A DNA stretch of 64,000 bases from Nanobdellota archaeon (GCA_043814765.1 JBDRJQ010000020.1:3028-67027); one strand, 5' to 3'; shown: positions 10,504-32,132, numbered from the stretch's first letter. Notes: generated by a model not told the origin, from the letters alone. Program-made: numbers and translations.

Positions 10504-10608
10504 TGCGTCGACCGGGATTCGAACCCGGATCATTAGCTACCGTCTAAACCTTTTCTTAAAAAAAGGCTTATTGGAAGGCTAAGGTCCTAGCCGTTAGACT
10601 ATCGACGC
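10504..10608 (-). tRNA. tRNA-Gly(UCC) with 33-nt intron at 37/38
   Basis: Hand fold gives acceptor GCGTCGA/TCGACGC, D arm GTCT-AACGGCTA-GGAC, anticodon stem TTAGC/GCTAA, loop CTTCCA^A and T arm CCGGG-TTCGAAT-CCCGG. The intron maps to 10539..10571. Confidence 0.85.
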
Positions 10609-10620
10609 AAAACAACTGGA

Positions 10621-11121
10621 CTATACGTCCAGGTCAAAGTCATCATCCATGTCGCTTTCACTTACAATCTTTTCTGGAGTTATATCTTTTACTTGAGATT
10701 TGCCTTTTTTGATTGCAGCCGCGACTTGATCCAACATTTTGTCGTCCATTCTTTTGACTTCAAGTGCTCCTTCAAGACCTATTGGACCCTCATTCATGAA
10801 CCTTGGTATTACGTGGAAATGAACGTGATTAACCAACTGTCCTGCTGCTGCGCCGTTGCTCTGCCCAATTGACACTCCGTCTGATTTCATAGATGTTTTT
10901 ACCTGCCCAGCTAGTTTCTTCACTGCTAAGAAAAGATCTGAAGCTTCCTTGTCTGGCATATCCAAGATATTTGAATAGTGTTTTTTTGGAATTACTATGC
11001 TATGCCCTGGGTTCCTTGGATTAATGTCTAGGAACGCTAAATGCTTTGCATCTTCATATACCTTTCTTGTAGGTATTTTTCCTGCAGCGATACCGCAAAA
11101 CAGGCATTGTTCTCCTGCCAT
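10621..11121 (-). CDS. HIT family (histidine triad) nucleotide hydrolase/transferase
   Basis: Contains HSIVIPKKH and the HVHFHVIPR histidine triad, plus an acidic C-terminal tail. Confidence 0.85.
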   Translation of the reverse strand: MAGEQCLFCGIAAGKIPTRKVYEDAKHLAFLDINPRNPGHSIVIPKKHYSNILDMPDKEASDLFLAVKKLAGQVKTSMKSDGVSIGQSNGAAAGQLVNHVHFHVIPRFMNEGPIGLEGALEVKRMDDKMLDQVAAAIKKGKSQVKDITPEKIVSESDMDDDFDLDV

Positions 11122-11142
11122 ATTATCACCTTAGTTTTTGAA

Positions 11143-11346
11143 TGGGGCTACCCGGATTTTCATACCATGAAAATCTTCAGACTTCCTTTTGGATTAAACC
11201 TTTTTTCAAAAGGTTTATTTTGAACCGGGGTCGTAAGCTCTTTTTGAATCCATTTCAATTGGAAGCGTCAGCTCCTTTTACTGAAGCTTTTCTTGAAAAA
11301 GCTTCACCCAAAGCTTAAATGCTAGACCAAGCTACACCATAGCCCC
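11143..11346 (-). tRNA. tRNA-Pro(UGG) with two introns (67 nt at 37/38; about 62 nt in the T-loop)
   Basis: Hand fold gives acceptor GGGGCTA/TAGCCCC, D arm GTGT-AGCTTGGTCTA-GCAT, anticodon stem TAAGC/GCTTA, loop TTTGGG^A (G37) and T stem CCCGG/CCGGG split by an insert. The introns map to about 11240..11306 and 11158..11219. The second boundary is ambiguous because AAAAT is repeated. Confidence 0.72.
11184..11217 (+). repeat. dispersed hairpin repeat, copy inside the T-loop intron of tRNA-Pro
   Basis: TCCTTTTGGATTAAACCTTTTTTCAAAAGGTTTA. Confidence 0.7.
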
Positions 11347-11392
11347 ATAATACCGTAATTGATTATTATAGTTTATAAAAGTAATAATATTC

Positions 11393-12106
11393 ATGACTTT
11401 GGAAGCCATTGTTTCTGAAATCAGGAAGGATTTGAAGGAAAATATTGACGAGGAGTACAGGAAAGGTTGCGCGAGAGCTTTCAAGGAAGAAATAAAGCCT
11501 TATGGTGTCCGTTTCGGAAAATTGAGTTGTATAACCAAATCTCACTTAAAGGAAATAAAAAAACTAAGTTTTGAACAGACAGCCGAGCTATGTGAAAAGC
11601 TTCTTAAAAGCGGCTGGTTTGAAGAAACCTCTGTAGCATTCGCCTTTATGTACAGCCACAGGAAAGAATTCAAAGAATCTACAATAGATTTGTTTGAAGA
11701 GTGGATAGAAAAATACGTGCACAATTGGGCTCATTGTGACGATTTCTGCACACATACTATAGGTTTCTTGCTTGAGAAATACCCGTTACTTGTAAATAGG
11801 GTTTTCTCTTGGACAGACTCAAAAAACAGATGGATGAAAAGAGCATCCGCTGTTAGTTATGTTATTCCAGCAAAAAACAGTCATTTTTTAAAGGAAATTT
11901 TACAAACCGCAGAGAAGCTTCTGTATGATGAAGATGATTTAGTTCGCAAAGGTGTAGGGTGGATGTTAAAAGAATATGCAAATCATAATCCTAAACCTAT
12001 AATAGAATTCGTAGACAAATATAAGAAGACAATGCCTAGAACAACACTGCGCTATGCAATAGAAAAACTTCCTAAGGAAACGAGGAAGAGGCTGATGGAA
12101 AAATGA
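11393..12106 (+). CDS. DNA alkylation repair protein (AlkD-like HEAT-repeat family)
   Basis: The 237-aa product has the pattern WFEETSVAF...WAHCDDFC...RWMKRASAVS...VRKGVGWMLKEY that I recall as typical of this family. Confidence 0.6.
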   Translation: MTLEAIVSEIRKDLKENIDEEYRKGCARAFKEEIKPYGVRFGKLSCITKSHLKEIKKLSFEQTAELCEKLLKSGWFEETSVAFAFMYSHRKEFKESTIDLFEEWIEKYVHNWAHCDDFCTHTIGFLLEKYPLLVNRVFSWTDSKNRWMKRASAVSYVIPAKNSHFLKEILQTAEKLLYDEDDLVRKGVGWMLKEYANHNPKPIIEFVDKYKKTMPRTTLRYAIEKLPKETRKRLMEK

Positions 12107-12396
12107 AAAAAATAAATAAAAAAAAGGAGAAGGCGTCGATTGTAGCAGGCACAACAGCTGCAACAGCTGGTTCTGTCGGCGGAATTCTTGGCGCGCTTGG
12201 CATATGCGGGTTTTGCATTGCGCCAACTGCCATAGCAGGATTGGCACTAATAAGCGTTATTTTGGCTGTCATAACCCAATACAGTTCTATTTTCCTGATA
12301 ACAGGAATGGTTTTGCTCATCTTCAGTTTTATTCTTAGAAAAACCCACCAAAAGAAATGCAAGGTGTGCAAAGCAAAGATTAATACAGAGAAATGA
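12103..12396 (+). CDS. small membrane protein
   Basis: Two hydrophobic spans and a C-terminal CKVCK. ATGA overlaps with both neighbours indicate translational coupling. Confidence 0.45.
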   Translation: MKKINKKKEKASIVAGTTAATAGSVGGILGALGICGFCIAPTAIAGLALISVILAVITQYSSIFLITGMVLLIFSFILRKTHQKKCKVCKAKINTEK

Positions 12397-13730
12397 CAAT
12401 TATAAACATGGTAAAACTTGTTTCGCATATACCTTCTAAGAACGTAATATCTTGCCTGAAAAGAGATATTCTGATTGACGGGTTCCATATAGTTGTTGAT
12501 TTGAAAAAAAGCAAAGGCAGTTACATGTATTCAGCTGTTGACAAGAAAAAATACCTGGACATGTACTCTTATTTTTCAACGCTTCCTATAGGCCATAACC
12601 ATCCAAAGATGATTAACAAAAGTTTTTTAAAAGAGCTCACTGCTGCTGCCATAGAAAAACCAGCAAACTCAGACGTATATACAGAAGAATATGCGCATTT
12701 CGTTAAAACCTTCTCAAAGTTTGCTAAGCCTCCTCATATGAAACACTTATTCTTTATATCAGGAGGAGCCCTGGCAGTAGAAAACGCACTCAAAACTGCT
12801 TTTGACTGGAAGATAAGACACAACTTCAAGAAAGGTTCAATAAATGAAACAGGCACAAAAGTCATGCACTTCAGAGAAGCTTTTCACGGCAGAAGTGGAT
12901 ATACATTATCTTTAACTAACACAGATCCTGTTAAAACAAAGCATTTTCCCAAATTTGACTGGCCCAGAATAATTAATCCAAAGCTTCACTTTCCTGTAAC
13001 AAAGGAAGTTCTTGAAGAAGTTGAAAGGGTAGAAAAGAAAGCAGTCACACAAATAAGCAAGAACATAAGAAAATACGGAAACGACATAGCATGCTTGATT
13101 ATAGAGCCAATTCAAGGAGAAGGAGGAGACAACCATTTCAGAAAAGAGTTCTTACAGAAACTTGAAAGCATATGCAATAGACACAGCATAATGTTTATTT
13201 TAGACGAGATTCAAACAGGCTTTGGCACCACAGGCAAGATGTGGGCGTATCAGCATTTCGGAATAAAACCAGATATCATAGCTTTCGGCAAAAAAACTCA
13301 GGTTTGCGGTATAATGGCTTCAAAACGCGTTGATGAAGTTGAGAACAATGTCTTTGAGAAATCCAGCAGAATAAACTCTACGTGGGGCGGAAATCTGGTT
13401 GACATGGTTCGCTGCAGAAGATACCTTGAGATAATGGTTAAGGACAAATTAATTGAAAACGCAGCAATTGTTGGCGAATATTTCTTGAAGCGCTTAAGAG
13501 AGCTCTCAGAAGAATGCGGACAGTTCAATAATGTTCGAGGACGGGGATGTTTTGTTGCAATAGAATTTCCTTCTGTAAAAGAAAGAGACGAGTTCAGAAA
13601 GAACTGCTGGAAGAATGGCTTGGCGACCTTAAACTCTTGGCCAAAATCCATTCGTTTCCGTCCACCATTAAACATATCCAAGAGTGAAATCGATGAAGCA
13701 ATTGAAGTAATGAGAAAATGCTTGAATTAG
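12393..13730 (+). CDS. lat: class III aminotransferase, L-lysine 6-transaminase-like
   Basis: Contains DGFHIVVDLKKSKGSYMY...YLDMYSYFSTLPIGHNHP, PLP-Lys context IIAFGKKTQVCG and DEIQTGFG. Confidence 0.7.
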   Translation: MTIINMVKLVSHIPSKNVISCLKRDILIDGFHIVVDLKKSKGSYMYSAVDKKKYLDMYSYFSTLPIGHNHPKMINKSFLKELTAAAIEKPANSDVYTEEYAHFVKTFSKFAKPPHMKHLFFISGGALAVENALKTAFDWKIRHNFKKGSINETGTKVMHFREAFHGRSGYTLSLTNTDPVKTKHFPKFDWPRIINPKLHFPVTKEVLEEVERVEKKAVTQISKNIRKYGNDIACLIIEPIQGEGGDNHFRKEFLQKLESICNRHSIMFILDEIQTGFGTTGKMWAYQHFGIKPDIIAFGKKTQVCGIMASKRVDEVENNVFEKSSRINSTWGGNLVDMVRCRRYLEIMVKDKLIENAAIVGEYFLKRLRELSEECGQFNNVRGRGCFVAIEFPSVKERDEFRKNCWKNGLATLNSWPKSIRFRPPLNISKSEIDEAIEVMRKCLN

Positions 13731-13806
13731 TAAGTACCGATAAGTTGACATTATAAAACAAAACCCCCCAAATGTTTGGAGGGAATTGATTCTTGAAAAT
13801 ATGCGC

Positions 13807-14814
13807 CTACTGAGTATTGGCTTTAGCTTCGGCGATTTCTTCCTCTGTGTAGAGAAGCCGACAACCATCGTTGTGAATCGAAAGGCCATTGTTGAGATAG
13901 GTCTTATCTCCAGGCTCAATCCGCTCCCCGCAGATTGCGCATACACGGTCGCACTGGCAAGGAAATGTGTTGCATACGGGGCACTCCATTGAATACTGCT
14001 CCATACCCCACCACTGCCCATACAGTTTGAGAAGGTCAATTATCTCCCCATGCCTTGTAAGAGCAACTCTTTTGCGGGTGAACTCCACGGTCTGCCAGGT
14101 AGTCACGAAAGTTCCGTCAACGAATGGTCCATCTTTCTCGAGCTGCACTCTGACAGGCGCGCCTTCACGAAAGTTGTTTCGGATGTCTTTCGCATAGAGC
14201 CACATACTTGAAATACCTTGAGGAGAGAATGAGCCTTGAATTGCAATATTTTCACCTTTGACTATAACCTCCATGTAGAGGCCGAAGCCTGTGTTGAAGA
14301 TGTGAGGCATTTCTCTGCGCTGTTGGGAGAGGTTTTCAAACCAATCCGTTTTGAAAAGGAGGATGGGATCGAGCCGCAACCAGAGAGGTCTTCTGTCGGG
14401 TGCATAAGTAATGCTTTTTCCTGCGGAAGGAAGCGCGTTGCAGATGCATTCCGACCTTTCCGCTAAAATTTCCAACATCTTTTCCGAGACGATAACGGCG
14501 AAGTTTTCTTTAACCTTCGCCTTCCCCCAGGATTTCAGGCCATACTTCATGGTTGCGAAAGCGACTATAATGAAGTTTTCGTCGCTGTTGATGAGTGCTG
14601 AAATCCATGGCCCTTCTTCCACATCAAAGATTTGAATATCCTTGAATTTTACAACGTCTCCAACCTTGAATTCGCCCGATGATGTGAGGCCCATGTTTAG
14701 TACACAGCCCCTTTCGTCATACCGGAGATCTGAATATCTTACAAACAATCGAGCTCCGTCTTCTGCAAACGCTGTTGGCAGAAACTCTCTAATCATTTCG
14801 ATGATAGCTTTCAT
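13807..14814 (-). CDS. hypothetical protein with C-terminal Cys-rich (zinc-ribbon-like) region, on a GC-rich island
   Basis: The 335-aa ORF ends in CPVCNTFPCQCDRVCAICGERI...CRLL. AGGAG lies about 7 nt before the ATG. Several antisense ORFs overlap it, as expected for higher GC. Confidence 0.6.
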   Translation of the reverse strand: MKAIIEMIREFLPTAFAEDGARLFVRYSDLRYDERGCVLNMGLTSSGEFKVGDVVKFKDIQIFDVEEGPWISALINSDENFIIVAFATMKYGLKSWGKAKVKENFAVIVSEKMLEILAERSECICNALPSAGKSITYAPDRRPLWLRLDPILLFKTDWFENLSQQRREMPHIFNTGFGLYMEVIVKGENIAIQGSFSPQGISSMWLYAKDIRNNFREGAPVRVQLEKDGPFVDGTFVTTWQTVEFTRKRVALTRHGEIIDLLKLYGQWWGMEQYSMECPVCNTFPCQCDRVCAICGERIEPGDKTYLNNGLSIHNDGCRLLYTEEEIAEAKANTQ

Positions 14815-15054
14815 GGCTATCTCCTCATACTGAGGGAGTCTGACTCAGACCCTTTCAGCGCCATTGTTTATCCCCTAATGGCAGGGAAATTTGCTGTTTT
14901 AGAAAAAGCTACTAACATCTATCAAATCTGGTTCCAATCATGTCTCGCGTTCTATGAGAGTCACAATCAGATCTTGGATCTGATAGTCGTTTTTTGTTAA
15001 TTTTTGATAACCCAGCGAACCTTTTACCGTTCAAAAGGCTAATATATTTAATGA

Positions 15055-15104
15055 GTTTTTGGATACAACCTTTTGTAGAAGGCGAAAGCCTCTAAAAGGT
15101 TGTA
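15055..15104 (+). repeat. dispersed hairpin repeat, copy with extra GAAGGC-GAAA-GCCTC hairpin in the loop
   Basis: GTTTTTGGATACAACCTTTTGTAGAAGGCGAAAGCCTCTAAAAGGTTGTA. A weaker CCTTTT...AAAAGG hairpin lies at 15017..15040. Confidence 0.65.
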
Positions 15105-15152
15105 ATGTTACTATTAAATAGTGACAAAGGGTTTATAAAGCTTACGCTTAAA

Positions 15153-15398
15153 TCATGCAATAAGTTGCTTTATATATACTGGTTCTGGGCCTTGCTGTCT
15201 TTTGATATCCATCCTTACAAAACCCAAATCAGTGTAGGTTGATTTATGACCGTAATCGCATTCAAAATAATCATGCTTTACACCGTTTCCTAGCTCGCCT
15301 ATGTATCTCAAATCTTGTGGTTCATCAGAGATGCCTAGTATGTGGCACATTGGACAGACTTCTTCTATTACGTCTCCTAAGATTGGATATTTCATCAC
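15153..15398 (-). CDS. hypothetical small protein (CPMC...CDYGH)
   Basis: 81-aa ORF with a possible Zn-binding pattern. No family recognised. Confidence 0.4.
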   Translation of the reverse strand: MMKYPILGDVIEEVCPMCHILGISDEPQDLRYIGELGNGVKHDYFECDYGHKSTYTDLGFVRMDIKRQQGPEPVYIKQLIA

Positions 15399-15506
15399 TC
15401 AAAGAATAAACTTCGGCAAACCGAACAGTTATTAATTGTTTTAGCTTGCTTATAAACAAAGATTTCAAACGCTAACTGATTTATTCCTGCTATACCATAT
15501 GTTACT

Positions 15507-16082
15507 ATGTCTGCAGATAACAAGGAGATAGAGATAAAGATACCTCTTACTGAAAACGAGTTTTTTGAGCTGAAAGAAAGACTAAGGCAAATCGCTACAA
15601 TGAAAAACAACACTAAACATGTAGACACATATTTTACTCCGCCGCACAGAGACTTTTCAGAACCGCAATATCCGTTTGAATTTTTCAGCATCAGAAAAAG
15701 AGGGGACAAAACCATATTAAATTACAAGCATTTCCACCCACCAAACTCCCCGGAAACAACGCACTGTGACGAGTTTGAGACAGAGATAACTAATGCAGAG
15801 GGCATAGAAAAGATAATATCGTTGCTTAATTTCAGGCAATTGGTTGTTGTTGAAAAGGAAAGAGAAACATTTATCTACAAAGATGATTTTGAAATCTGTA
15901 TGGATAAAGTAAAGGATCTAGGGTTTTTCATAGAGATTGAAGCAATGAAATCTTTTGACGGTGTTGAAGACACAAGAAATAAACTGTTTGAGTTTGCAGA
16001 ATCTCTGGGAATAGATACTTCAAAAACAGCTCCAAGAGGGTATGTTTGCATGCTTATGAAAAAAGGGCAATATGCTAATTAA
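15507..16082 (+). CDS. CYTH domain protein (class IV adenylate cyclase / triphosphatase fold)
   Basis: N-terminal EIEIKIPL (ExExK) motif and an FIEIE strand near the C-terminus. Confidence 0.7.
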   Translation: MSADNKEIEIKIPLTENEFFELKERLRQIATMKNNTKHVDTYFTPPHRDFSEPQYPFEFFSIRKRGDKTILNYKHFHPPNSPETTHCDEFETEITNAEGIEKIISLLNFRQLVVVEKERETFIYKDDFEICMDKVKDLGFFIEIEAMKSFDGVEDTRNKLFEFAESLGIDTSKTAPRGYVCMLMKKGQYAN

Positions 16083-17067
16083 ACAACGCCTTTATGGCCA
16101 TTGTTGCGTAAGCACCCTTTGGCAGTCTGAAAGAAACCACGCATTTTCTTTTACCCTTGTTTAGTTCGTCTTTTTCTAGGGAAGTTATACTAAATTCTTC
16201 CAATGGCATCATCAGGTTTCTATCTGCCCCGCTTGATACCATTTCTGGCATTTCAGGAATCTTGAAATCCTCTTTCTTTACGCCTTCTGAAGACATAATC
16301 TCGTTTGCTATGAAAGCTATATCATTCGGTATCTTTGTTTCATAACCAATTAGCGGCACGTTTATGTTTTTTACATTCTCTGTTGGAAAAATCAGTTCCC
16401 CTAGCGGATATTTCAGTTTTTTGTGTTTGAACTTCTTCATATATTCGCTTACCATGCGATTCCACAAAAAAGACTGGTAAGCATGAACATACAGCCACAA
16501 AGTTCTCTTGGGAATTATTCTTAGTGCACCAATTGCATCATTATGATGGTTTCTAAGATGCTCTAAACATTCGGGTATCATTCGAGCAGCCTCCTTAAAC
16601 TTCTTCTGCACTATAAGTTTTCCTATGAAATGGTTGTTAGCTTCTCTGCCAAAACGCTGTTCATCAAAATAATTTGGCACCCATTTCATTTTCTTTGGGG
16701 TTTTTATCTCATCAATTGCCCTTACTGTTATCTCAAAATCATTGGCTACGTGCGTGGATAAATTCATTCTTTCATCAACGCGACCCAAATAAGTTAGCTT
16801 TATGTTGTTCAAATCAAGGTTTTTGTTCGGTCCGTTTAATATTGATATATACTGTTCTGTAACAGCAAATTTGTCCTTTGTTCCAGAGTAGTTGATATAT
16901 TTTCTACTTTTTTTAAGTGAATAAGCTATGGCAGAGATAGCCCTTTCAGTGGTAACATTATTCTTCCATAAGGAATAGCAAGCGTATTTTCCGCCCTTAC
17001 CGATAAAAACATCTATAACTTCGCTTACAAGAAAATCTTCTGGTATCTGCTTTATTTTATATGCCAT
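16075..17067 (-). CDS. truD: tRNA pseudouridine synthase TruD/Pus7
   Basis: N-terminus has IKQIPEDFLVSEV. The catalytic motif is GTKDKFAVTEQ (GxKDxxAxTxQ). Confidence 0.8.
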   Translation of the reverse strand: MAYKIKQIPEDFLVSEVIDVFIGKGGKYACYSLWKNNVTTERAISAIAYSLKKSRKYINYSGTKDKFAVTEQYISILNGPNKNLDLNNIKLTYLGRVDERMNLSTHVANDFEITVRAIDEIKTPKKMKWVPNYFDEQRFGREANNHFIGKLIVQKKFKEAARMIPECLEHLRNHHNDAIGALRIIPKRTLWLYVHAYQSFLWNRMVSEYMKKFKHKKLKYPLGELIFPTENVKNINVPLIGYETKIPNDIAFIANEIMSSEGVKKEDFKIPEMPEMVSSGADRNLMMPLEEFSITSLEKDELNKGKRKCVVSFRLPKGAYATMAIKALFN

Positions 17068-17127
17068 GAATAATTTTAAGATAGGAGATTAAAAAACGTT
17101 TTTTAACCCATACAGCTTAATTCACGT

Positions 17128-17994: not shown

Positions 17995-18058
17995 CTCAGT
18001 TTGGTAGAGCAATTGCTTCGTAAGCAATGGGTCGAGGGTTCGAATCCCTTTCGAGGCT
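17985..18058 (+). tRNA. tRNA-Thr(CGU)
   Basis: Fold is GCCTCGG TA GCTC AGTTTGGTA GAGC A ATTGC TTCGTAA GCAAT GGGTC GAGGG TTCGAAT CCCTT TCGAGGC T. There is no intron. Confidence 0.9.
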
Positions 18059-18090
18059 TCTTTTTATTTAACTGAAACTATTTCATTATC

Positions 18091-18525: not shown

Positions 18526-18575
18526 AAAACCCCTAAACTAAAGAGGGGGTTAAAAACAAAGAGCTATCTATTTAA

Positions 18576-18620
18576 TTATTTTTTCTTTTTGCTCTTTTTT
18601 GCTGCTTTCTTTTTTGCCAT
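18576..18620 (-). CDS. 14-codon Lys-rich micro-ORF (MAKKKAAKKSKKKK), copy 2
   Basis: The reverse complement reads ATGGCAAAAAAGAAAGCAGCAAAAAAGAGCAAAAAGAAAAAATAA. GGAGG lies 7 nt upstream. It is paralogous to 5838..5882. Confidence 0.3.
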   Translation of the reverse strand: MAKKKAAKKSKKKK

Positions 18621-18680
18621 TTTAACCTCCAATAATTCAATAATATTATATTATTCTACTACCTAATAAATCAGCATTTA

Positions 18681-19250: not shown

Positions 19251-19331
19251 AATAACTAATTGTATTTTTTGGTAATAAGCTTTCTGTTCACATATCGCTT
19301 ATTATTTAAGCTAACATAACAATTAAAGAAA

Positions 19332-20339: not shown

Positions 20340-20347
20340 GCGATTTT

Positions 20348-21108: not shown

Positions 21109-21142
21109 AAGAGTAATTTCACAAATATATAGTAGTGATTAT

Positions 21143-21913: not shown

Positions 21914-21955
21914 CAACCATTTTCTATTTATTTCTCAAAATCAATTATTTTACCA

Positions 21956-22906: not shown

Positions 22907-22964
22907 CTTTATTTAAAAAGAAAAGATACAAATTATAAAAAAATATATTTTTGGAGGTAATTAT

Positions 22965-23246: not shown

Positions 23247-23254
23247 GTGGTAAA

Positions 23255-23629
23255 TTGACAGAACTGAATCAAATCTACAAATGCAATATCTGCGGAAACA
23301 TAACCGAAGTCCTGCATACAGGTGCAGGAGAGCTTGTCTGCTGCGGCCAGCCGATGGAGCTTTTGGAAGCCAAAATGCAAGACCAGGGACATGAAAAGCA
23401 CGTTCCTGTCATTGAAAAAACAGAAAAAGGTGTAAGGGTAAAGATAGGCTCGATTCCTCATCCAATGGAAGAAAGCCACTTCATTGAATGGATACAAATC
23501 ATCGCAGACGGCAAGAGCTACAGGAAATTCCTTAAACCAGGCGACGTGCCAGAAGCAAAGTTCTGCATCAAGGCAGATAACATGGCTGTGAGAGCATACT
23601 GTAATGTGCACGGTTTGTGGAAGGCGTAA
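23255..23629 (+). CDS. dfx: desulfoferrodoxin (2Fe superoxide reductase)
   Basis: N-terminal desulforedoxin Cys are YKCNICGN...VCCG. The SOR centre is HVPV...[11 protein letters not shown]...CNVHGLW. The start codon is TTG. Confidence 0.85.
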
Positions 23630-23630
23630 G

Positions 23631-23720
23631 CCTCCTTTTGGATCAAATCTCTTATTGTAATGGATTAGAGATATCTCTTATCCTATTATATTGGAGATAA
23701 GACCTTTTTCTAAAAGGTTT
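23631..23720 (+). repeat. dispersed hairpin repeat, copy split by a nested palindromic insert
   Basis: CCTCCTTTTGGATCAAA[...GGATTAGAGATATCTCTTATCC...]GGAGATAAGACCTTTTTCTAAAAGGTTT. Confidence 0.6.
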
Positions 23721-23756
23721 GTGTGGAAGGCGTAAGGCTTTATTCCTTTATTTTAA

Positions 23757-24389
23757 TTGATTATTATGAAAACCCTAGTCGAAACAATTAACCAGCTAAA
23801 GAACAGCGAAGTGAAACAATTAGTTGATTCTCGGACAGAGGAATTCAAGAAGATTAGAAAGAACGAAAACAACTCTCTTTTCAAAGAGCTATGCTTCTGC
23901 CTTCTTACTGCAAACTACAGTGCTGAAGGCGGCATAAAGATACAGAAAAAGATAGACAATGATTTCATTACTCTTTCTGAGGTTGATCTCAGGAATGAAT
24001 TGAAGTTTTTAGGGCACAGATTCTACAGCGCCAGGGCAGCCTATATCGTGCTTGCAAGAAAGCATCTTGAAATGCTAGAAATGCTGACAAGGACTTTGGG
24101 AGAGCAGGCATTGAGAAAATGGCTTGTGGAGAATGTCAAAGGCTTAGGATACAAAGAGGCCAGCCATTTCATGCGCAATATTGGCTATAGTGATGTAGCC
24201 ATAATTGATTTTCACATAATCGACCTTTTAGTTAAAAACAAAATCATAAAAAGTCCGAAAACTCTGACATCGAAGAAATACCTTGAGATTGAAGCCCTTC
24301 TAAGGAAGATTGCTGACAAAACAAACCTCAATCTCGCTGAATTAGATTTCTATCTCTGGTACATGGAGACAGGGAAGATTTTAAAGTAG
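23757..24389 (+). CDS. ogg: N-glycosylase/DNA lyase (archaeal Ogg, HhH-GPD)
   Basis: Contains LFKELCFCLLTANYSAE and VKGLGYKEASHFMRNIG, followed by D. An ATG at 23766 is an alternative start. Confidence 0.7.
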   Translation: MIIMKTLVETINQLKNSEVKQLVDSRTEEFKKIRKNENNSLFKELCFCLLTANYSAEGGIKIQKKIDNDFITLSEVDLRNELKFLGHRFYSARAAYIVLARKHLEMLEMLTRTLGEQALRKWLVENVKGLGYKEASHFMRNIGYSDVAIIDFHIIDLLVKNKIIKSPKTLTSKKYLEIEALLRKIADKTNLNLAELDFYLWYMETGKILK

Positions 24390-24408
24390 TTTAAACTAAT
24401 TTTATATT

Positions 24409-25281
24409 ATGAAACAAGCCGACTTCTGGACGAAGTTGGATGATAAGAAAGTCCAATGTCAGTTATGTCCTAGAAACTGTATAATAGCTGATGGTAAGCG
24501 TGGAGCATGCAATGTCAGAGAAAACAGAAAGGGAATATTATACTCTCTTGTCTACGGCAGGCCTGTAACAGTGTCAGTTGATCCGATTGAGAAGAAACCA
24601 TTATACCATTTTCATCCAGGCACACAGACTTTGTCTATAGCAACAGTAGGCTGTAATCTGCGCTGCAGCTTCTGCCAGAACTGGGAGATATCCATTGCTA
24701 CGACTGTAAGTGGCCAGCATCTGTCTCCAGAGCAAGTGGTTGGCATTGCAAAGGATTACGGAGTAAAAAGTATAGCCTATACGTACACAGAACCCACTAT
24801 ATTTTTCGAATACGCTTATGATATCATGAAAATCGCTCGCAAGGAAGGCCTCCTTAACGTGTGGGTATCCAATGGCTACACTAACCCAGAACCAGCTAAA
24901 AAAGCTGCAAAATATCTTGATGCAATAAATGTTGATCTGAAAGGTAACCCAAAATTCTACAAAGATTTATGCATGGTTCCCAGCGAAGAACCAATACATG
25001 AAGCTCTGAAGATATACAAGCAAAACAAAGTTCACATAGAGATTACAACACTCCTTATCCCTGATCATAACGATGATGATAAAACGCTTCAGGGAATAGT
25101 TGACTGGGTTAAAATAAACCTTGGAACAGATACACCGATGCATTTCTCAAGATTTCATCCTGACCATAAACTAAAGAACGTTCCGTCTACGCCAATTGAA
25201 ACAATTAAAAAAGCAATGGAAATAGCAAAAAAGAGAGGAATGAAGCACGTTTATGCAGGCAATGTGCCTAATCTTATATAA
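24409..25281 (+). CDS. AmmeMemoRadiSam system radical SAM enzyme
   Basis: Contains CQLCPRNC...GACNVREN and ATVGCNLRCSFCQNWEIS, which I recall as typical of this family. Confidence 0.8.
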   Translation: MKQADFWTKLDDKKVQCQLCPRNCIIADGKRGACNVRENRKGILYSLVYGRPVTVSVDPIEKKPLYHFHPGTQTLSIATVGCNLRCSFCQNWEISIATTVSGQHLSPEQVVGIAKDYGVKSIAYTYTEPTIFFEYAYDIMKIARKEGLLNVWVSNGYTNPEPAKKAAKYLDAINVDLKGNPKFYKDLCMVPSEEPIHEALKIYKQNKVHIEITTLLIPDHNDDDKTLQGIVDWVKINLGTDTPMHFSRFHPDHKLKNVPSTPIETIKKAMEIAKKRGMKHVYAGNVPNLI

Positions 25282-25303
25282 ATATCATCTACAAATTGAT
25301 AAC

Positions 25304-25732
25304 ATGGCTGAAGATAAAGAACAGATAGAAAAGAAGATGAAAGAAGGCTGGATTAAGACCAGCATGATGATTGAGCTGTTAGCTGCTGATCCAGACAAAA
25401 CAAAGGAATTTCTAGAGAAACATGTTGAAAAGATAGAGAAAGAGGATAAAATTATACTTTACAGAAAGGACTTTAAAGAGGTTATAGAAACAACTAGTCC
25501 ATTTCCAAACGTACCAAAGGCTTATTCTGGAATTGTTGAGATAGAGCTTGTAGCAGAGACTCTAGACAAAATAGTTTATATTGTAATGAACTACGGACCA
25601 ACTAACGTGGAGATATTGGAACCTACAAGGATTGCAATAGATATGGGAGAAGCACAGGGCATAGTTAATTCTGTCTCCACAATGATGCACAAGTTCGCCG
25701 CAGCAGGCGTCGGTGGCATAATTACTAGTTAA
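25304..25732 (+). CDS. hypothetical protein
   Basis: The ORF starting MAEDKEQIEK is preferred over the track start at 25253, which overlaps the upstream gene. Confidence 0.4.
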   Translation: MAEDKEQIEKKMKEGWIKTSMMIELLAADPDKTKEFLEKHVEKIEKEDKIILYRKDFKEVIETTSPFPNVPKAYSGIVEIELVAETLDKIVYIVMNYGPTNVEILEPTRIAIDMGEAQGIVNSVSTMMHKFAAAGVGGIITS

Positions 25733-25780
25733 AATCAATACCAAGCAAAGCTTTTTATACCCCAAAATTAACATTTTATT

Positions 25781-26260
25781 ATGTACGATAATCCTGAAGA
25801 CGTTATTGAGAATGGTGTACCAGCTGCTGTTAGAAAAGACTGGGATATGGTAGACGAAGCAGTAGTTCCAGCATTTGAAAAAGCACTTAAAGGTAAAGGC
25901 GAATGCGGAGCATTAGATAAAATTGATGAATATCTAAAAGATGAAAATCCAGATGTTAGAGATTATTCAGCAACTCTTGCAACTAAATTTTTTCAAGTTA
26001 TTCCGTATAGGCATAGTGATCATATAATGATATTAGCATTACTAAAGGAAGTTGCATACGATGATCCAGAGATCTTCCCAAGATTTAGAGCTTCAACAAC
26101 TTTAGTAGAAATTGATAGAAGTAATATGCAAGATGTCGATCTTGGTATAAATTATGGAAGATTGCTTGAGAACTTCAATGATACTGTTGCCGAAGAGGCT
26201 GATTTGTCAGAAGTAGCAAATCAATACATATCATATGTATCTGGTAAAATTAAACAATAA
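25781..26260 (+). CDS. hypothetical protein (helical repeat-like)
   Basis: 159-aa ORF, no family recognised. Confidence 0.4.
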   Translation: MYDNPEDVIENGVPAAVRKDWDMVDEAVVPAFEKALKGKGECGALDKIDEYLKDENPDVRDYSATLATKFFQVIPYRHSDHIMILALLKEVAYDDPEIFPRFRASTTLVEIDRSNMQDVDLGINYGRLLENFNDTVAEEADLSEVANQYISYVSGKIKQ

Positions 26261-26894
26261 TTCTAGCATCCACAGCAACAGCGCCTCTAAAACTGACAAA
26301 AACTGGATTCAAGTCTAGTTCTTTTATTTTCTTCTCTTTTGTCATCATTCTTGATATTTTTAGCAGAATATCCTCTATGGCTTTGAAGTTCACCGCTTTG
26401 TGACCGCGCACGCCTTTTAGAATGCTGTAGCCCTTTATTTCCCTTATCATCTCTTGCGCGTCTTTGCGCTCTATAGGAATCAGACGGAAGGAAACGTCCT
26501 TTAGAACCTCTACGAATATACCGCCCATGCCAAACATTATAACAGGACCAAACTGCTGGTCATAGTTCGCTCCGATAATTGTTTCATGACCGCCAATCAT
26601 CTGCTGAACTAAGATGCCTTCCACTTTGGCTCTGGGCTGTTTTCTCTTGACATTGGCATGAATTTTTTTGTAGGCATGCCTGACTTCCAGATCATCCTCC
26701 AAGCCAATCTCAATTCCGCCAGCCTCTGTCTTGTGCACAATATCCTTTGAAACAATTTTCAGAGTGACCGGGTAGCCAATTGACTTGGCTTTCTTTGAGC
26801 ACTCGTCCTCAGTTCTCACTATAGAATAAACAGGATAAGGTATGCTGTATTTACGCATAAGTTTCAATGTTTCAGTGTCAGAAAGTTTCGGCAT
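26250..26894 (-). CDS. ATP-grasp domain protein, ADP-forming acetyl-CoA synthetase beta-like
   Basis: Contains ETLKLMRKYSIPYP...GYPVTLKIVSKDIVHKTEAGGI...LDLNPV. Confidence 0.6.
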   Translation of the reverse strand: MPKLSDTETLKLMRKYSIPYPVYSIVRTEDECSKKAKSIGYPVTLKIVSKDIVHKTEAGGIEIGLEDDLEVRHAYKKIHANVKRKQPRAKVEGILVQQMIGGHETIIGANYDQQFGPVIMFGMGGIFVEVLKDVSFRLIPIERKDAQEMIREIKGYSILKGVRGHKAVNFKAIEDILLKISRMMTKEKKIKELDLNPVFVSFRGAVAVDARIIV

Positions 26895-26935
26895 ATTAAA
26901 TAATTGTTTCGAGTAATAAAATAATTTAATAAACC

Positions 26936-27688
26936 ATGCGAAATAATTCTATGGAAGAAAAAAAGCCAATAATTACATATGCACTCATAATCATAAACAT
27001 TTTGGTGTTTCTTATAGTCTTTTCAATGCCAGAAGAGATGCTTAATGTGGTGTTTCAAAACTTTGCTTTTTCCTCTTCTCAAGCAGGAGAAGTATGGAGA
27101 TGGTTTTCATCACTCTTCCTTCATGCCAGCGCTTCTCATCTTTTCTTCAACATGATTGGTCTGTTCTTCTTTGGAAAGATACTGGAGAAAGAGGTTGACA
27201 AGCAATGGTATCTGGCAATTTACTTCATAGGCGGTTTAATAGGCACTTTTGCCTTTATGTTGACTAGTATAGAGCCAGTTGTAGGAGCATCCGGTGCTGT
27301 GTTCGCTCTGATGGGTGCGGCCATGTTTTTGAATCCAGTCAAGCGCGTGCACTTCTTCGTGTTCCCATTACCGTTAGCCTTTATAGCAATAACATTCCTA
27401 TTGACAACAACCATTGTTGTGTACTTTCAGCCAGAGATGGGTGGAGTTGCGCATATAGCTCATTTGGCAGGACTGATAACAGGATCGATATTTGCGTTTT
27501 TCTATGACCCGAAACGGGTAATGAAAGGGCTTCTAGTGCTCATAGTAATGGGTGCCTTGCTTTTGATACTGGGTCCAATTCTAGGACTCATAACTGGTTT
27601 TGGCAGCATAATGCTGTCTGTAATAGACACTGTGATAGGTGCGGTTCTTTACACCATTGCAAAGCTTCTAGGATTCTTATGGGCATAA
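26936..27688 (+). CDS. rhomboid family intramembrane serine protease
   Basis: Contains HLFFNM, the catalytic Ser in GASGAVFALMG and the His in AHIAHLAG. Confidence 0.8.
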   Translation: MRNNSMEEKKPIITYALIIINILVFLIVFSMPEEMLNVVFQNFAFSSSQAGEVWRWFSSLFLHASASHLFFNMIGLFFFGKILEKEVDKQWYLAIYFIGGLIGTFAFMLTSIEPVVGASGAVFALMGAAMFLNPVKRVHFFVFPLPLAFIAITFLLTTTIVVYFQPEMGGVAHIAHLAGLITGSIFAFFYDPKRVMKGLLVLIVMGALLLILGPILGLITGFGSIMLSVIDTVIGAVLYTIAKLLGFLWA

Positions 27689-27743
27689 GTTCTTTTCTAA
27701 ATTTTAATTTATTAATCCAATTGTCAATTTTATGGTATACAGT

Positions 27744-27775
27744 AAACCTTTTTCAAAAGGTTCAATTCAAAAGGA
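27744..27775 (-). repeat. dispersed hairpin repeat, inverted orientation
   Basis: The plus strand reads AAACCTTTTTCAAAAGGTTCAATTCAAAAGGAG. The reverse complement matches CTCCTTTTGxATxxAACCTTTT...AAAAGGTTT. Confidence 0.6.
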
Positions 27776-27875
27776 GTCTAAGGACTTCCATAGCATTGTT
27801 TGGGGTTTCCCATATAGCACAATAATAGGATGTGTAGAGGAGTGATGACTTGTATAGTCATTTTTTAAAATAGAG

Positions 27876-28373
27876 GTGATTGTATTGTTTAGCAGAAATA
27901 AAGAAAAGCTTTCTTCTAGGTCTAATGTTGCCTGTTTTGTTGACGGTCCTAACATAATAAGGAAAGAGTTTAATCTGGATTTAGATGAGCTTCGCAGAAC
28001 AGCTCAGAAATACGGAAGAATAATTGTAGGAAAAGTTTTTCTCAATCAGCATGCTTCGGATAAATTAATAGAGGCCATAGCAAATCAGGGATTTGAACCG
28101 ACGGTTATGCTGAGTGGTGAAACAGATCCTGATGTTGATGTTGCTCTTGCTGTTGCAGTAGTTGAAGCGGCATATAATAGTGACATAGATATCATAGTAA
28201 TAGGATCAAGAGATGCTGATTATCTGCCTGCAATTCAGGCTGCAAAGAAGCGCAACAAGAAAGTTGTTGTTATGGGCACAGAACCAGGCTTCTCAAAAGC
28301 GCTTCAGCATTCTGCTGATTATGTTGAGTTTCTAAGAGGAAGATCCAGTCCTCCAAAAAGGAGCTTCAATTAA
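27876..28373 (+). CDS. NYN (LabA-like) domain protein
   Basis: Contains ACFVDGPNI...DVDVALAV...IVIGSRDADYLPA. The start is GTG. Confidence 0.7.
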   Translation: MIVLFSRNKEKLSSRSNVACFVDGPNIIRKEFNLDLDELRRTAQKYGRIIVGKVFLNQHASDKLIEAIANQGFEPTVMLSGETDPDVDVALAVAVVEAAYNSDIDIIVIGSRDADYLPAIQAAKKRNKKVVVMGTEPGFSKALQHSADYVEFLRGRSSPPKRSFN

Positions 28374-28405
28374 TCTTATTAAACGTGCAAACTTTAACTA
28401 TTAAC

Positions 28406-29320
28406 ATGAAAAAAGCAGTTATTGCTCTTGGCGGGAACGCTTTTTTAGAAAGGGGTCAGAAAGGGACTTTTGAAGAGCAGGTAGAAAATCTGCAAAAAGC
28501 TTCTAAGGAAATTGTTAAGCTAATCAAATCTGGATGGGACATAACAATTACTCATGGTAATGGTCCTCAAGTCGGTGCTATTCTTCTTCAACAAGATACT
28601 ACCAAAGAGGTTCCAAAAATGCCAATGTATATCTGCGGGGCAGAAAGCCAGGGACTCATGGGTTACATGATATGCGAGTCCTTGGGGAATGAGATGCGAA
28701 AGAACAAAATAAATAAAGATGTTGTTAACATAATGACGCGCGTTGTTGTTGACAAAAATGATCCTGCTTTCAAGAACCCGGAAAAAGCAGTAGGACCATC
28801 ATACAAGTCTTCAGAAGGCTTGCCTAAAGACTGGACTATAAAGAAAACCTTCCGCGGTTTCAGACGTGTTATAGCATCACCAGAACCCAAAGAAATAATG
28901 GAAGCAGATGCTATAAGAGACGCCTCAAAAAACGCGGTTGTTGTTGCGTGTGGCGGTGGAGGAATACCTGTTGTAAAAGATGGCAGAAGTATCAGAGGCA
29001 TTGATGCTGTTATAGACAAAGACAAGGCATCAGAGCTTCTTGCCCGCAAAATAGGAGCTGATACACTAATCATACTCACAGATATTAATTCTCTGTATCT
29101 AAACTGGCGCAAAGAGAATGAACAAAAACTAGATGCAATTACATTAAAAGAAGCAAAAAAATACTACAAAGAAGGACATTTCCTTGCCGGTTCAATGGGA
29201 CCAAAAATGGAAGCTGCTATAAAATTTTTAGAGAACGGCGGTAAACAAGTCGTAATTTGCCTTTTTGAAGATCTAGAGAAAGCTCTGGAAGGTAAAGCAG
29301 GCAGTATTGTTAAGAACTGA
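28406..29320 (+). CDS. arcC: carbamate kinase
   Basis: Contains MKKAVIALGGNAF, ITHGNGPQVG, ACGGGGIPV and DKDKAS. Confidence 0.85.
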   Translation: MKKAVIALGGNAFLERGQKGTFEEQVENLQKASKEIVKLIKSGWDITITHGNGPQVGAILLQQDTTKEVPKMPMYICGAESQGLMGYMICESLGNEMRKNKINKDVVNIMTRVVVDKNDPAFKNPEKAVGPSYKSSEGLPKDWTIKKTFRGFRRVIASPEPKEIMEADAIRDASKNAVVVACGGGGIPVVKDGRSIRGIDAVIDKDKASELLARKIGADTLIILTDINSLYLNWRKENEQKLDAITLKEAKKYYKEGHFLAGSMGPKMEAAIKFLENGGKQVVICLFEDLEKALEGKAGSIVKN

Positions 29321-29337
29321 TTTTTAGGAAGCGTTAG

Positions 29338-29370
29338 TTTTTGGATAAGACCTTTTTTCAAAAGATTTTA
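29338..29370 (+). repeat. dispersed hairpin repeat between convergent arcC and ftsZ
   Basis: GTTTTTGGATAAGACCTTTTTTCAAAAGATTTTA. Confidence 0.6.
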
Positions 29371-29428
29371 TGAGGAGAGGCGGGAAAGGCAACCGAGCCT
29401 CGATTACCTTTCACCAATCTCTTTATAC

Positions 29429-30676
29429 TCATTTTCCTATTACAGGAATTCCAAGATCCTTTGCGAATTCATCTCTGTGTGCAGCTTCTTCTTGTGCCAG
29501 GGGACCCAGTATGTATGGCGATTTTATTCCCGTGACAATTGTTATAACTCTTATCTTGCCCTTGAATGTTGGGTCAATTCTTGAACCCCATATAACCTGT
29601 GCCTCTGGATCAAGTTGTCTTGATACATATTCTCCTATTAAATTCACTTCATCAAGTTTTAGATCCTCGCCGCCCGTTATGTGTATCAAAGCACCTGTTC
29701 CACCTTCGTAGTTAACTTCCAAGAGCGGGTTTGCCATAGCCCTTGTTACAGATTCTTCTGCTCTGTTCTTTGTGTCAGATTCTCCGAAACCAACGCTTGC
29801 AACTCCGCCTGAGTGCATTATCGTTCTGACATCTGCATAATCCAGGTTTACAAGTGATGGTGTTGCGATTGTTTCTGTAACACCTTTTATTATTGTTGAT
29901 ATCAAATTGTCTGCTACACCAAAAGCCTGCTGAAGTGGCAGGTCGCCAGCTATCTTCAACAATCGGTCATTCTCTATTACCATAACAGTATCACAGACCT
30001 GTCTTAAGTGGTATAAACCATCTTCTGCTTTTCCCATTCTAGCTCCTTCTATCTTAAATGGTAATGTTACACAACCGATAACAATTGCTCCCATATCTTT
30101 GGCTATCTGAGCTATTACTGGTGCAGCTCCTGTACCTGTTCCGCCACCAAGACCGCAAACAAGATACAGCATGTCACATCCTTCAAGTATCTTCTTCAGC
30201 TGTTTTTCGCTTTCTTCTGCAGCTTTTTTGCCTGTTATAGGATATCCTCCTGCTCCAAGACCTCTTGTAAGTTCTCTTCCTATAAGAACTTTCTTATCGC
30301 TTTTACTGATGCTTAAATGTTTTGCGTCTGTATTAACAGCAATTGTATCAGCTCCTTTTACTCCCATTTCTGTTAGCCTTGTTACACAGTTGTTACCTGC
30401 ACCGCCAACGCCAAGAACAAGTATCTTTGCTTGCAAGTTTTCAAGGCCAAACTCATCCATTATATCCTGATCTGCATTCTTTGGTGTCTCGTTTGGAACC
30501 ACGTAAGCAGCTGGCTCTCCTGCAGATATTTCATTTGAATAACTGAAAGAATTTGCTTTCTGTGGCTCTATGTTTGTTTCTTGGACACGCTCAACCGGTG
30601 AATATCGTGTTGGTTCTCTTACCGGTTCAATATTTTTTACTTCATTTTCAAATACTCTTTGTATGATCGAATCCAT
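29429..30676 (-). CDS. ftsZ: cell division protein FtsZ
   Basis: Contains GVGGAGNN and the tubulin signature GLGGGTGTGAAPV. Confidence 0.92.
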   Translation of the reverse strand: MDSIIQRVFENEVKNIEPVREPTRYSPVERVQETNIEPQKANSFSYSNEISAGEPAAYVVPNETPKNADQDIMDEFGLENLQAKILVLGVGGAGNNCVTRLTEMGVKGADTIAVNTDAKHLSISKSDKKVLIGRELTRGLGAGGYPITGKKAAEESEKQLKKILEGCDMLYLVCGLGGGTGTGAAPVIAQIAKDMGAIVIGCVTLPFKIEGARMGKAEDGLYHLRQVCDTVMVIENDRLLKIAGDLPLQQAFGVADNLISTIIKGVTETIATPSLVNLDYADVRTIMHSGGVASVGFGESDTKNRAEESVTRAMANPLLEVNYEGGTGALIHITGGEDLKLDEVNLIGEYVSRQLDPEAQVIWGSRIDPTFKGKIRVITIVTGIKSPYILGPLAQEEAAHRDEFAKDLGIPVIGK

Positions 30677-30689
30677 TTTTTCACCTCTC

Positions 30690-31010
30690 CTCTTATATTA
30701 AAAGACGACTATACACAATCATTGTAAGTCGTCAACCATTCGGAAGCGGAAACAGACGGACGACCTTAGCCAATCGGTTTAAGTCGTCATGCTGTTCGCT
30801 CCTTTTGGATAAAACCTTTTTCTAAAAGGTTTTATATACTGTAAAACATATTTTCCAGTTCGGAATTGCATTTAAATACGTTCAACCAAGTATATACATA
30901 AAACTAGAATTGTATCAAGTTCCCCAACTTGATGACCAAATTCATTGATATTCAATAAACGTTTATTCGATCCCCATCGAATGCGCGTCTGTTTCTGATA
31001 CCCTAAAACC
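30690..31010. ncRNA. candidate structured RNA or structured ftsZ leader (unclassified)
   Basis: No ORF is present. GAAACAGACG (about 30749..30758) is exactly complementary to CGTCTGTTTC (about 30986..30995). Several local hairpins lie between them (GACGAC...GTCGTC twice, TTCGAT-CCCC-ATCGAA, ATCAAGTT-CCCC-AACTTGAT). Confidence 0.3.
30799..30834 (+). repeat. dispersed hairpin repeat, best copy (12-bp stem)
   Basis: CTCCTTTTGGATAAAACCTTTTTCTAAAAGGTTTTAT. Confidence 0.7.
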
Positions 31011-32130: not shown

Positions 32131-32132
32131 AC

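Follow-up and report, generated by a model that had tools for sequence, protein, structure and literature searches.

The way in which the tRNA genes of archaea come to have introns at new positions is a question raised by 64,000 nucleotides of DNA from a Nanobdellota archaeon (GCA_043814765.1 JBDRJQ010000020.1:3028-67027; hereafter, at its full length, the window), in which a family of small hairpin elements is found both in the spacers between genes and inside tRNA introns. In this genome and its close relatives, one sequence family occurs in three states, in spacers (where an insertion is included), in tRNA leaders, and as the core of introns at tRNA positions 37/38 and 59/60, which makes of the question a problem of comparative genomics and biochemistry with defined substrates. 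We consider it probable that these small non-coding palindromic modules are a non-autonomous mobile hairpin family, akin to the miniature inverted-repeat transposable elements (MITEs) or to REP (repetitive extragenic palindromic) sequences, that doubles as the core of tRNA introns. A non-exhaustive search of the literature found no description of a hairpin family common to the tRNA introns and the spacers of DPANN archaea.

Read on the sense strand of the tRNA introns, the element (element A) is a unit of ~47-55 nt composed of a first hairpin (hp1), a linker and a second hairpin (hp2). Hp1 has 10-12 bp, TAAACCUUUU-loop-AAAAGGUUUA (in a shorter core form, TAAACCTTTT-loop-AAAAGGTTTA), carries runs of four to six T (T4-T6) in both arms, and closes on a loop that varies among copies from 2 to >50 nt; the linker is AUCCAAAA, and hp2 is GGAGC-UNAC-GCUUCC. 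The sequence-only reading of this DNA had counted at least seven dispersed copies. A covariance model (R1) trained on 8 copies, all from other genomes and none from the window, finds 7 at E<0.01 when the window is scanned with filters off, every one at a place which that reading had named, and in addition a copy split in two (23631) and another that is marginal (15018); the eight named sites are all present as they had been described, the hairpins in the tRNA-Gly intron and in tRNA-Pro intron 1 included. No R1 match with E<1 lies beyond 10.5-31 kb of the window. In ~700 kb of control DNA the model gave a single match, located in the closest relative, within 612 kb of loci from metagenomes that encode relatives of HIT, and none in 91 kb around the FtsZ genes of more distant relatives. 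An independent repeat search of the window recovers the family as D4, D7 and D17, and the 23-mer CTCCTTTTGGATWAAACCTTTTT, with <=3 mismatches, has 3 matches in the window as against 0.00 expected from shuffles. In the alignment of hp1, 96% of the cells are paired and 20 cells are changed on both sides, compared with 4.0 +/- 1.7 after shuffling (0 of 500 shuffles reach 20), counts that lean towards structure because the alignment is R1-fitted and includes reverse-strand matches of the palindrome; the covarying outer pairs are UA/CG/AU and AU/GC.

Other identities for the element were tried and set aside. Rfam, at gathering and E-value thresholds, gave only tRNAs and noise, with one weak H/ACA-like match (30696-30851) whose 26 bits fall below the gathering score of 90. 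A Shine-Dalgarno or small open reading frame (ORF) role of AAAAGGAG was discarded, a start codon not being consistently downstream. A virus-borne element was also rejected: the viral DNA of IMG/VR has 0 matches to the full pattern and 0 to the second module described below, and 48 of its 49 half-pattern matches are without the hairpin. No plasmid or annotated homologs of the archaeal element were found.

In the window and at other loci (those compared from other genomes are numbered L001-L168, L018 and L027 belonging to the metagenome-assembled genome, or MAG, JAHIRU01, with FtsZ 85% identical), 8 of 8 tRNA-intron copies have the same orientation and start hp1 0-1 nt past the 5' splice site, and therefore hp1 occupies the position of helix h' in the bulge-helix-bulge motif. 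The copy at 11184, which the sequence-only reading had listed among the clear ones, lies itself in a tRNA intron, that of the T-loop of tRNA-Pro, a gene that ARAGORN and Rfam miss unless the intron is removed; ARAGORN finds it once 11156-11218 is deleted and an anticodon-loop intron of 65 nt is allowed. We read its anticodon as UGG (Pro), since the CUUUGGG anticodon loop is kept in the ortholog at L080, G37 is present, and AAA, which ARAGORN proposes because the placement of the intron is ambiguous, is an anticodon that archaea do not use. Removal of the insert, by predicted splicing, restores a canonical tRNA for both the tRNA-Gly and the tRNA-Pro copies, and the junction motif of an archaeal bulge-helix-bulge intron is found with it, in the canonical 3-4-3 form in the tRNA-Pro T-loop (T-stem CCCGG/CCGGG, helix H TTCA/TGAA, bulges AAA and AAT), where the predicted cleavage after the second bulge nucleotide would leave the T-loop TTCAAAT.

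The canonical 3-4-3 motif, in which hp1 takes the place of h' and the outer helix has 4-6 bp, is present in the T-loop intron of the window's tRNA-Pro and at L027, L018, L024 and L001; the T-loop geometry of tRNA-Pro recurs in the T-loop introns of L027 and L018 and, by eye, of L024, and the canonical motif is also that of the anticodon-loop introns of L024 and L001. T-loop introns of the UGAA-AA type are found in at least 4 different tRNAs (window Pro, L018, L027, L024), and as UUCA is universal in T-loops, an intron with this end should be spliceable from the T-loop of any tRNA. The 37/38 intron of tRNA-Gly(UCC), of 33 nt (10539-10571), is nearly all hp1 (10545-10570), and by hand can be drawn with B1 = CA|A, hp1 as h', H_b GACG/CTTC with 3/4 paired, and B2 = GT|A. 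In the tRNA-Pro ortholog of L080 both introns are present, with hp1 and hp2 kept through compensatory changes (GAAGC/GCTTC to AAGCC/GGCTT; in hp2, GGAGC..GCUUCC to GGAGGCC..GGCCUUCC; in the T-loop intron, ACCTTTT/AAAAGGT to ACCTGTG/CACAGGT), and the hp2 of intron 1 in the window matches that of L024 and L027. The tRNA-Gly(UCC) gene that adjoins the HIT gene has 1 intron in the window, 2 in L080 and 0 in L081, L080 keeping the hp1 intron and having an extra 46-nt T-loop intron (~10640-10690) of an unrelated hairpin family, absent from the window. We infer that the tRNA-Gly and tRNA-Pro inserts are spliced. The host ligation machinery for bulge-helix-bulge introns, archease and RtcB, is encoded in the window; no gene for the splicing endonuclease EndA is found in these 64 kb. 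Disrupted tRNA genes are already known to be numerous in DPANN lineages, along with endonucleases of broadened specificity (PMC5829648). Counting tRNA-Arg, 3 of the 4 tRNA genes in the window bear introns.

Coordinates of the element copies, tRNA genes and ligation genes in the window
Feature	Position	Strand	Details
R1 match	11185-11217	-	46.2 bits, E 2e-9; tRNA-Pro T-loop intron
R1 match	30801-30833	-	41.6 bits, E 3e-8
R1 match	27743-27774	+	35 bits, E 1e-6
R1 match	15055-15101	-	26.8 bits, E 1.5e-4
R1 match	29337-29369	-	24.6 bits, E 5e-4
R1 match	11274-11306	-	19.8 bits, E 0.008; tRNA-Pro anticodon-loop intron
R1 match	10545-10570	-	19.7 bits, E 0.009; tRNA-Gly intron
R1 split match (copy 23631)	23634-57 / 23700-20		15.9 / 12.8 bits
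R1 marginal match	15018-15040		E 0.8
Intergenic copy, GC hairpin nested in hp1 loop	15055..15104	-	R1 26.8-34.4 bits; fold -19 kcal/mol, z = -7
Composite intergenic copy 23631	23612..23739	-	directly after desulfoferrodoxin stop; R1 two split matches
Complete two-hairpin element, 47 nt	27743..27789	+	Rhomboid-NYN spacer; R1 35 bits; fold = two hairpins
Copy between convergent amino-acid kinase and FtsZ genes	29327..29372	-	R1 24.6 bits; hp1 imperfect, hp2 remnant GGAAGCGTTAG
Copy upstream of FtsZ	30798..30835	-	R1 41.6 bits; perfect 12-bp hp1, linker AUCCAAAAGGAGC
tRNA-Gly(UCC) gene	10504..10608	-	Rfam tRNA 56.3 bits (35-nt insert); ARAGORN -i i(39,33)
tRNA-Pro(UGG) gene (putative anticodon), two introns	11143..11346	-	exons 11346-11307, 11239-11219, 11156-11143
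tRNA-Pro intron 1 (37/38), 67 nt	11240..11306	-	hp1 TGAAGCTTTT/AAAAGCTTCA (11282-11306), GUAAAA linker, hp2 GGAGCUGACGCUUCC, tail
tRNA-Pro intron 2 (T-loop 59/60), 62 nt	11157..11218	-	hp1 11195-11217, linker AUCCAAAAGG, 3' terminal UGAA-AA; best R1 copy
tRNA-Arg(GCG) gene	36117..36310	+	ARAGORN -i; 121-nt intron (~36154-36274)
Archease	32088-32543	+	Pfam PF01951, 5.8e-37
RtcB tRNA-splicing ligase	33716-35173	+	Pfam PF01139, 1.4e-156

Outside tRNA genes the window has five or six intergenic copies, and two of these contain the nested hairpins that had already been noticed from the sequence, a GC hairpin in the loop of copy 15055 and a palindromic insert of ~55 nt in copy 23631. The latter insert belongs to a second palindromic module (module B) of ~65 nt, with the core GRATKAGAGATRTCTCTTRTYC and imperfect terminal inverted repeats of ~16 nt (CTCGAAATCTCATCTCC ... 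GGAGACAAGACTCGAG), which is nested both in copy 23631 (~23645-23700) and in the tRNA-Arg intron (36160-36225), these two being colinear over ~95 nt, hp2 included. The tRNA-Arg intron folds into four hairpins (z = -6.7), in a gene missed by default ARAGORN and Rfam, and holds, beside module B, the hp2-like GGAGGCUAAGGCCUUCC and no hp1. In the T-loop intron of L027 (5400-5465) module B occupies the loop of hp2 and is inverted, being identical at 53 of 63 positions when reversed, and because of this inversion the occurrence of the module in both orientations argues for mobility, that is, for insertion at the level of DNA.

Copy 23631 is composite: hp1 (23700-23722) is followed by the nested module B, the linker and hp2 (23619-23635), which overlaps the stop codon, and the whole is flanked, as the sequence-only reading had seen, by a duplication, here a direct repeat of 20-23 nt (GGTTTGTGGAAGGCGTAAGC at 23612-23631 and GGTTTGTGTGGAAGGCGTAAGGC at 23717-23739), the first copy of which is the native end of the desulfoferrodoxin gene, as judged from the L029 ortholog. 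Copy 15055 has a degenerate second copy in tandem (~15000-15041); the homology of its upstream promoter to L168 and L029 stops exactly at the start of hp1, and the surrounding region is missing in L080. No hidden tRNA genes appeared around the copies at 15018, 15064, 23631, 27745, 29338 and 30809 by brute-force deletion of segments followed by ARAGORN -i, a procedure that recovered tRNA-Pro as a positive control, nor did deletion and ARAGORN give a tRNA at the non-tRNA copies of L016, L021, L003, L002, L025 and L029. A bulge-helix-bulge can be fitted to the flanks of the intergenic copies no more often than at the background rate, 36% of random sites also allowing one, and excision of these copies is improbable. 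Both orientations with respect to the neighboring genes occur among them (~8 sense versus 4 antisense, a suggestive bias that is not significant), and in L006, labelled Woesearchaeota, two copies, on the strand opposite to tRNA genes, are upstream of these by 0 and 16 nt.

Two other motifs are found in the vicinity of these copies. At 15105-15160 (-), next to copy 15055, a promoter-like TTTATAAACCC and then a palindrome GTCACTATT.ATAGTGAC stand ahead of unrelated genes in three genomes (also L168 2450-2490 and L029 ~5640), and this pair may be a regulon motif; a translocation of the downstream gene from the amino-acid-kinase/FtsZ locus was considered and rejected, the proteins being unrelated and only ~45 nt of promoter and palindrome being common. 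A third hairpin family (ACGACTTA...TATAGTCGT), at 27845-27861 (+), 30705-30732 (-) and 30760-30787 (+) in the window and at 9930-9957 in L080, is placed directly upstream of ribosome-binding sites, those of the window's NYN and FtsZ genes and that of HIT in the relative, and may be a shared element of the 5' untranslated region or an operator.

Comparison of orthologous regions, which had been proposed as a check, reveals differences in presence and absence among relatives in the Rhomboid-NYN spacer, the 3' flank of FtsZ and tRNA-Gly. In the first of these, 27743-27789 is a precise insertion of 47 nt, the L029/L028/L165 lineage having the junction uninterrupted, as does L168, a third lineage, so that on the most parsimonious tree it would be an insertion in the lineage of the window. 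In the FtsZ 3' flank there is a copy in the window and a diverged ortholog in L029, L165 and L166, and none in L168. The copies at 15055, 23631, 29338 and 30809 coincide with differences of gene order or content with respect to L029, L080 and L168; synteny breakpoints carry a copy in 3 of 5 cases and intact junctions in 1 of 9, which is not significant, and the association with rearrangement junctions is suggestive. The copy at 30798-30835 sits at a synteny break related to Ham1, a gene (31055-31651, -) that separates FtsZ from eIF2-beta in the window alone; these two are adjacent in L160, L161 and L163, and have adenylosuccinate synthase and IMPDH between them in L029 and L165. The mobile or recombinogenic element suspected by the sequence-only reading gains support from the precise insertion, the presence or absence of tRNA introns, the two orientations of module B and the copies at rearrangement junctions.

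The distribution of the family is restricted. When a single genome of each species was scanned with a 20-base pattern, the element turned up in 11 archaeal MAGs of 35%-54% GC, labelled Woese-, Nano-, Aenigmat- or Micrarchaeota or 'uncultured archaeon', about half of the matches being in or beside tRNA genes; as the hp2 region GGAAGCGTYAG, which lies outside the pattern, is also common to L006, L024 and the copies of the window, we take the archaeal copies to be homologs and not artefacts of the pattern. The density falls from ~9 copies in the 64-kb window to sparse copies in close relatives and none in somewhat more distant ones, a patchiness that would fit bursts or horizontal spread.

These observations could also be approached from the opposite side, by supposing that the copies are not mobile and constitute a conserved functional cis-element, either a hairpin signal in RNA or single-stranded DNA (a bidirectional oligo-T terminator or a processing site) or a site bound by a conserved DPANN protein, maintained by selection, in which case the intron copies would result secondarily from the use of this stable hairpin as helix h'. 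Like the archaeal oligo-T terminators, the element has T4-T6 on both strands, in the two arms of hp1, and every intergenic copy is downstream of some gene end, the first TAA/TGA of the element serving to end the upstream gene as its stop codon in L021 and L003; in addition, hp1 and the linker are strongly conserved across MAGs of differing GC, and the copy in the FtsZ 3' flank is retained in two lineages with compensatory changes. However, the bidirectional terminator, which the sequence-only reading had put forward as the simplest role, is not supported as the main one by the gene map: a terminator of this kind would be expected to offer >=5 T on the transcribed strand at most 3' ends of transcription units, whereas a copy lies within 80 nt of only 6 of the 66 predicted gene 3' ends and the strands read from FtsZ and Ham1 offer just T4, for which reasons the element would not be the terminator of this genome, even if its T-runs may contribute to termination locally. 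Terminators, moreover, are not conserved in sequence over ~50 nt across genomes, unlike this ~50-nt sequence of two hairpins, which is also found inside tRNA introns and antisense in tRNA 5' leaders (L006). The range of loop lengths argues against a dimeric operator in duplex DNA, and the one clean lineage-specific insertion, like the 0 copies in 91 kb of more distant relatives, speaks against the cis-element in general, which we regard as unlikely.

A route through RNA seems to us improbable, less so than chance but more so than the cis-element. In this route introns circularized by RtcB, or their cDNA, would recombine into DNA at junction-like sites and would thus seed both the spacer copies and the introns. 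That archaea have circular tRNA introns is established (PMC12558985, PMC3326292), all tRNA-intron copies have one orientation, and the 20-nt repeat at 23631 consists of GGTTTGT plus GGAAGGCGTAAG, in which the last bases of hp1 run directly into the first of hp2, as in the junction of a circle, a recombined circle being expected to be flanked by the repeat of its junction; but the first copy of this repeat is ancestral coding sequence, so the resemblance may be due to chance, no reverse transcriptase is seen in the window, module B lies in introns in both orientations, and the intergenic copies have neither a significant sense bias nor a bulge-helix-bulge. As for chance itself, by which an AT-rich genome would come to have A/T-rich palindromes of independent origin, the T4-6/A4-6 core in a genome of 37% GC and the hairpin-less half-pattern matches in viral DNA would invite such a view; nevertheless, it is excluded for the strong copies, for which shuffles expect 0 and E-values go down to 2e-9, and conservation reaches the linker and hp2 while the control DNA is essentially without matches. 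It is conceivable only for the tRNA-Gly hp1 and the 15018 copy, and for the family as a whole we give it hardly any credence.

If we accept that the family is mobile, transposition at the level of DNA would be its mechanism and the insertion of a module could create a new intron. Copies would insert into spacers and then sit there passively, their T-runs perhaps aiding termination incidentally, while within tRNA genes a copy would survive only in the orientation and register that allow the precursor tRNA to form a bulge-helix-bulge. In such a precursor hp1, beginning at or just past the third nucleotide of the 5' bulge, would become the outer helix h'; the 3' end of the intron would give a 4-nt strand pairing with exon nucleotides, which in the T-loop introns would be UGAA with the universal UUCA, so that one intron end would suit any tRNA; and the splicing endonuclease would cut both bulges, after which RtcB and archease would join the exons. 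The link between mobile hairpins and tRNA intron gain that the sequence-only reading had evoked is plausible, whichever its direction may be.

Several facts weigh against a mobile family: (i) no autonomous partner is seen, as Pfam on ~60 ORFs of the window detects no transposase, integrase or Y1 (HUH) transposase; (ii) element A has no terminal inverted repeats, and its candidates for a target duplication are an imperfect 6-nt one at 27743 (at best ATACAG/ATAGCA) and the 20-nt repeat at 23631, which is atypical for transposition; (iii) only one insertion is polarized by an outgroup; (iv) the introns of tRNA-Gly, of the tRNA-Pro anticodon loop and of L012 need a relaxed bulge-helix-bulge, the 37/38 fits by hand in the Gly and Pro genes having 3/4 bp in H or a 4-nt bulge; (v) hp1 and the linker are nearly identical across MAGs of 35%-54% GC, at loci selected by the 20-base pattern, which is easier to reconcile with a functional constraint or with horizontal transfer than with neutral decay, this high conservation being the main argument for some function; and (vi) there are look-alikes in bacteria. 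These last, hit in the same 20-base scan, are dispersed two-hairpin repeats of ~60-75 nt in Oscillospiraceae (L010, L011, L013, L017, L019, L023) and Acetobacteraceae (L004, L015, L020), present also, unannotated, on plasmids of Komagataeibacter and Novacetimonas, which begin with the same GTTTTTGGAT and CCTTTTT/AAAAAGG hairpin as the archaeal element, one of their hairpins (TGAAGCTTTT..AAAAGCTTCA) having a stem identical to that of the tRNA-Pro intron; convergence or a shared recognition signal could be invoked. A system derived from IS200/IS605, or one of REP sequences and their RAYT, would be expected to have a Y1 (HUH) transposase, subterminal hairpins at both ends and a fixed tetranucleotide target; the window has no Y1_Tnp or TnpB match, and the 5' flanks of 16 copies have no common target.

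The DNA that carries the family is dense in housekeeping genes (HIT, desulfoferrodoxin, Ogg, rhomboid, NYN, FtsZ, RtcB, archease, TruD, EF-2) at ~37% GC, and its FtsZ matches at 100% identity a protein that bears the label 'MAG: Nanoarchaeota archaeon', with Nanoarchaeota- and Aenigmatarchaeota-labelled MAGs next; because of this gene content and these relatives we read the window as chromosomal DNA of a DPANN archaeon. Some further features were observed in it. In the region of 1-1035 and 2176-2942 (-), around 1 kb near the genes of the origin-associated proteins OapC and OapB is free of ORFs, and a replication origin may lie there. A tiny Lys-rich ORF (MAKKKAAKKTTKRR) occurs in two copies, to which an inverted repeat of 52 nt (87%) at 5835-5886 and 18572-18623 corresponds. 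Three large genes at 47852-55513 (-) have internal repeats (MopE-type metal-binding motifs, beta-helix, laminin-G) and probably encode surface proteins. At 59825-59966 a tandem 54-nt repeat (96% identical) codes for a Cys-rich peptide directly upstream of radical SAM and B12-binding radical SAM genes (60034-63233, +), in a region of 28% GC that looks like a cluster for ribosomally synthesized and post-translationally modified peptides and may be foreign DNA.

Among known systems, the REP sequences and bacterial interspersed mosaic elements (BIMEs) of bacteria and the MITEs, including the archaeal palindrome-associated transposable elements (PATEs) derived from IS200/IS605, are short, dispersed, mostly intergenic palindromes that are non-autonomous (for a general review see PMC3184786). 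The family resembles them in its short dispersed palindromes in multiple copies above chance, its hairpin covariation, its presence/absence polymorphism at orthologous sites, its nesting and its association with rearrangements. It differs in that no RAYT, TnpA or other transposase was found in the window, in that element A is without terminal inverted repeats or a clear target duplication, and in that copies in tRNA genes are tolerated as introns; module B does have imperfect terminal inverted repeats. The C/D box small RNAs (sRNAs) have box C (RUGAUGA) and box D (CUGA) at their ends, forming a k-turn. Such an identity was rejected for our element, as no box C (nor UGAUGA) is found on either strand of any copy, box D is sporadic and Rfam gives no match; even so, the C/D box sRNA genes of Nanoarchaeum and Pyrobaculum are described as mobile and some are inside tRNA introns, and they share with the family the occurrence of small structured modules in tRNA introns and intergenic sites of a nanoarchaeon (PMC3491384).

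The closest precedent is that of the transposed tRNA introns of the Thermoproteales, for which a recent gain at the DNA level was inferred (Fujishima et al. 2010, MBE 27:2233, as summarized in PMC4090602 and PMC4390854), as would be the case here. From these introns, as summarized there, our family differs in belonging to DPANN archaea and not to Crenarchaeota, in occurring outside tRNA genes too, in tRNA leaders and in spacers, where one copy is a demonstrable insertion, and in its modular build (hp1, linker, hp2, nested module B). The closest concept is that of the eukaryotic introners, described as MITE-like transposons that create spliceosomal introns (bioRxiv 10.64898/2026.07.09.736142, PMC11282704): in both cases a small mobile element would be harmless in genes since host splicing removes it, and bursts of introns could follow. 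Unlike in the introners, splicing would here depend on a protein endonuclease and the bulge-helix-bulge, the targets would be tRNAs, and the element would not contain both splice sites, the exon supplying one strand of the central helix.

It is tempting to go further and to see in these modules the archaeal counterpart of introners, which would land anywhere and persist in tRNA genes, each landing giving a new bulge-helix-bulge intron; we advance this tentatively, and are more inclined to doubt it than to affirm it. If true, it would account for this DPANN lineage's burst of canonical and T-loop introns, and would offer a concrete, testable vehicle for the transposition of tRNA introns. In practical terms, incomplete tRNA sets have been reported in DPANN genomes (PMC5829648), and tRNA genes with several introns, such as tRNA-Pro, are missed by standard finders, so that a model of the module can flag hidden tRNA genes in these archaea. 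In summary, to judge from its sequences the family behaves like the MITE/REP elements.

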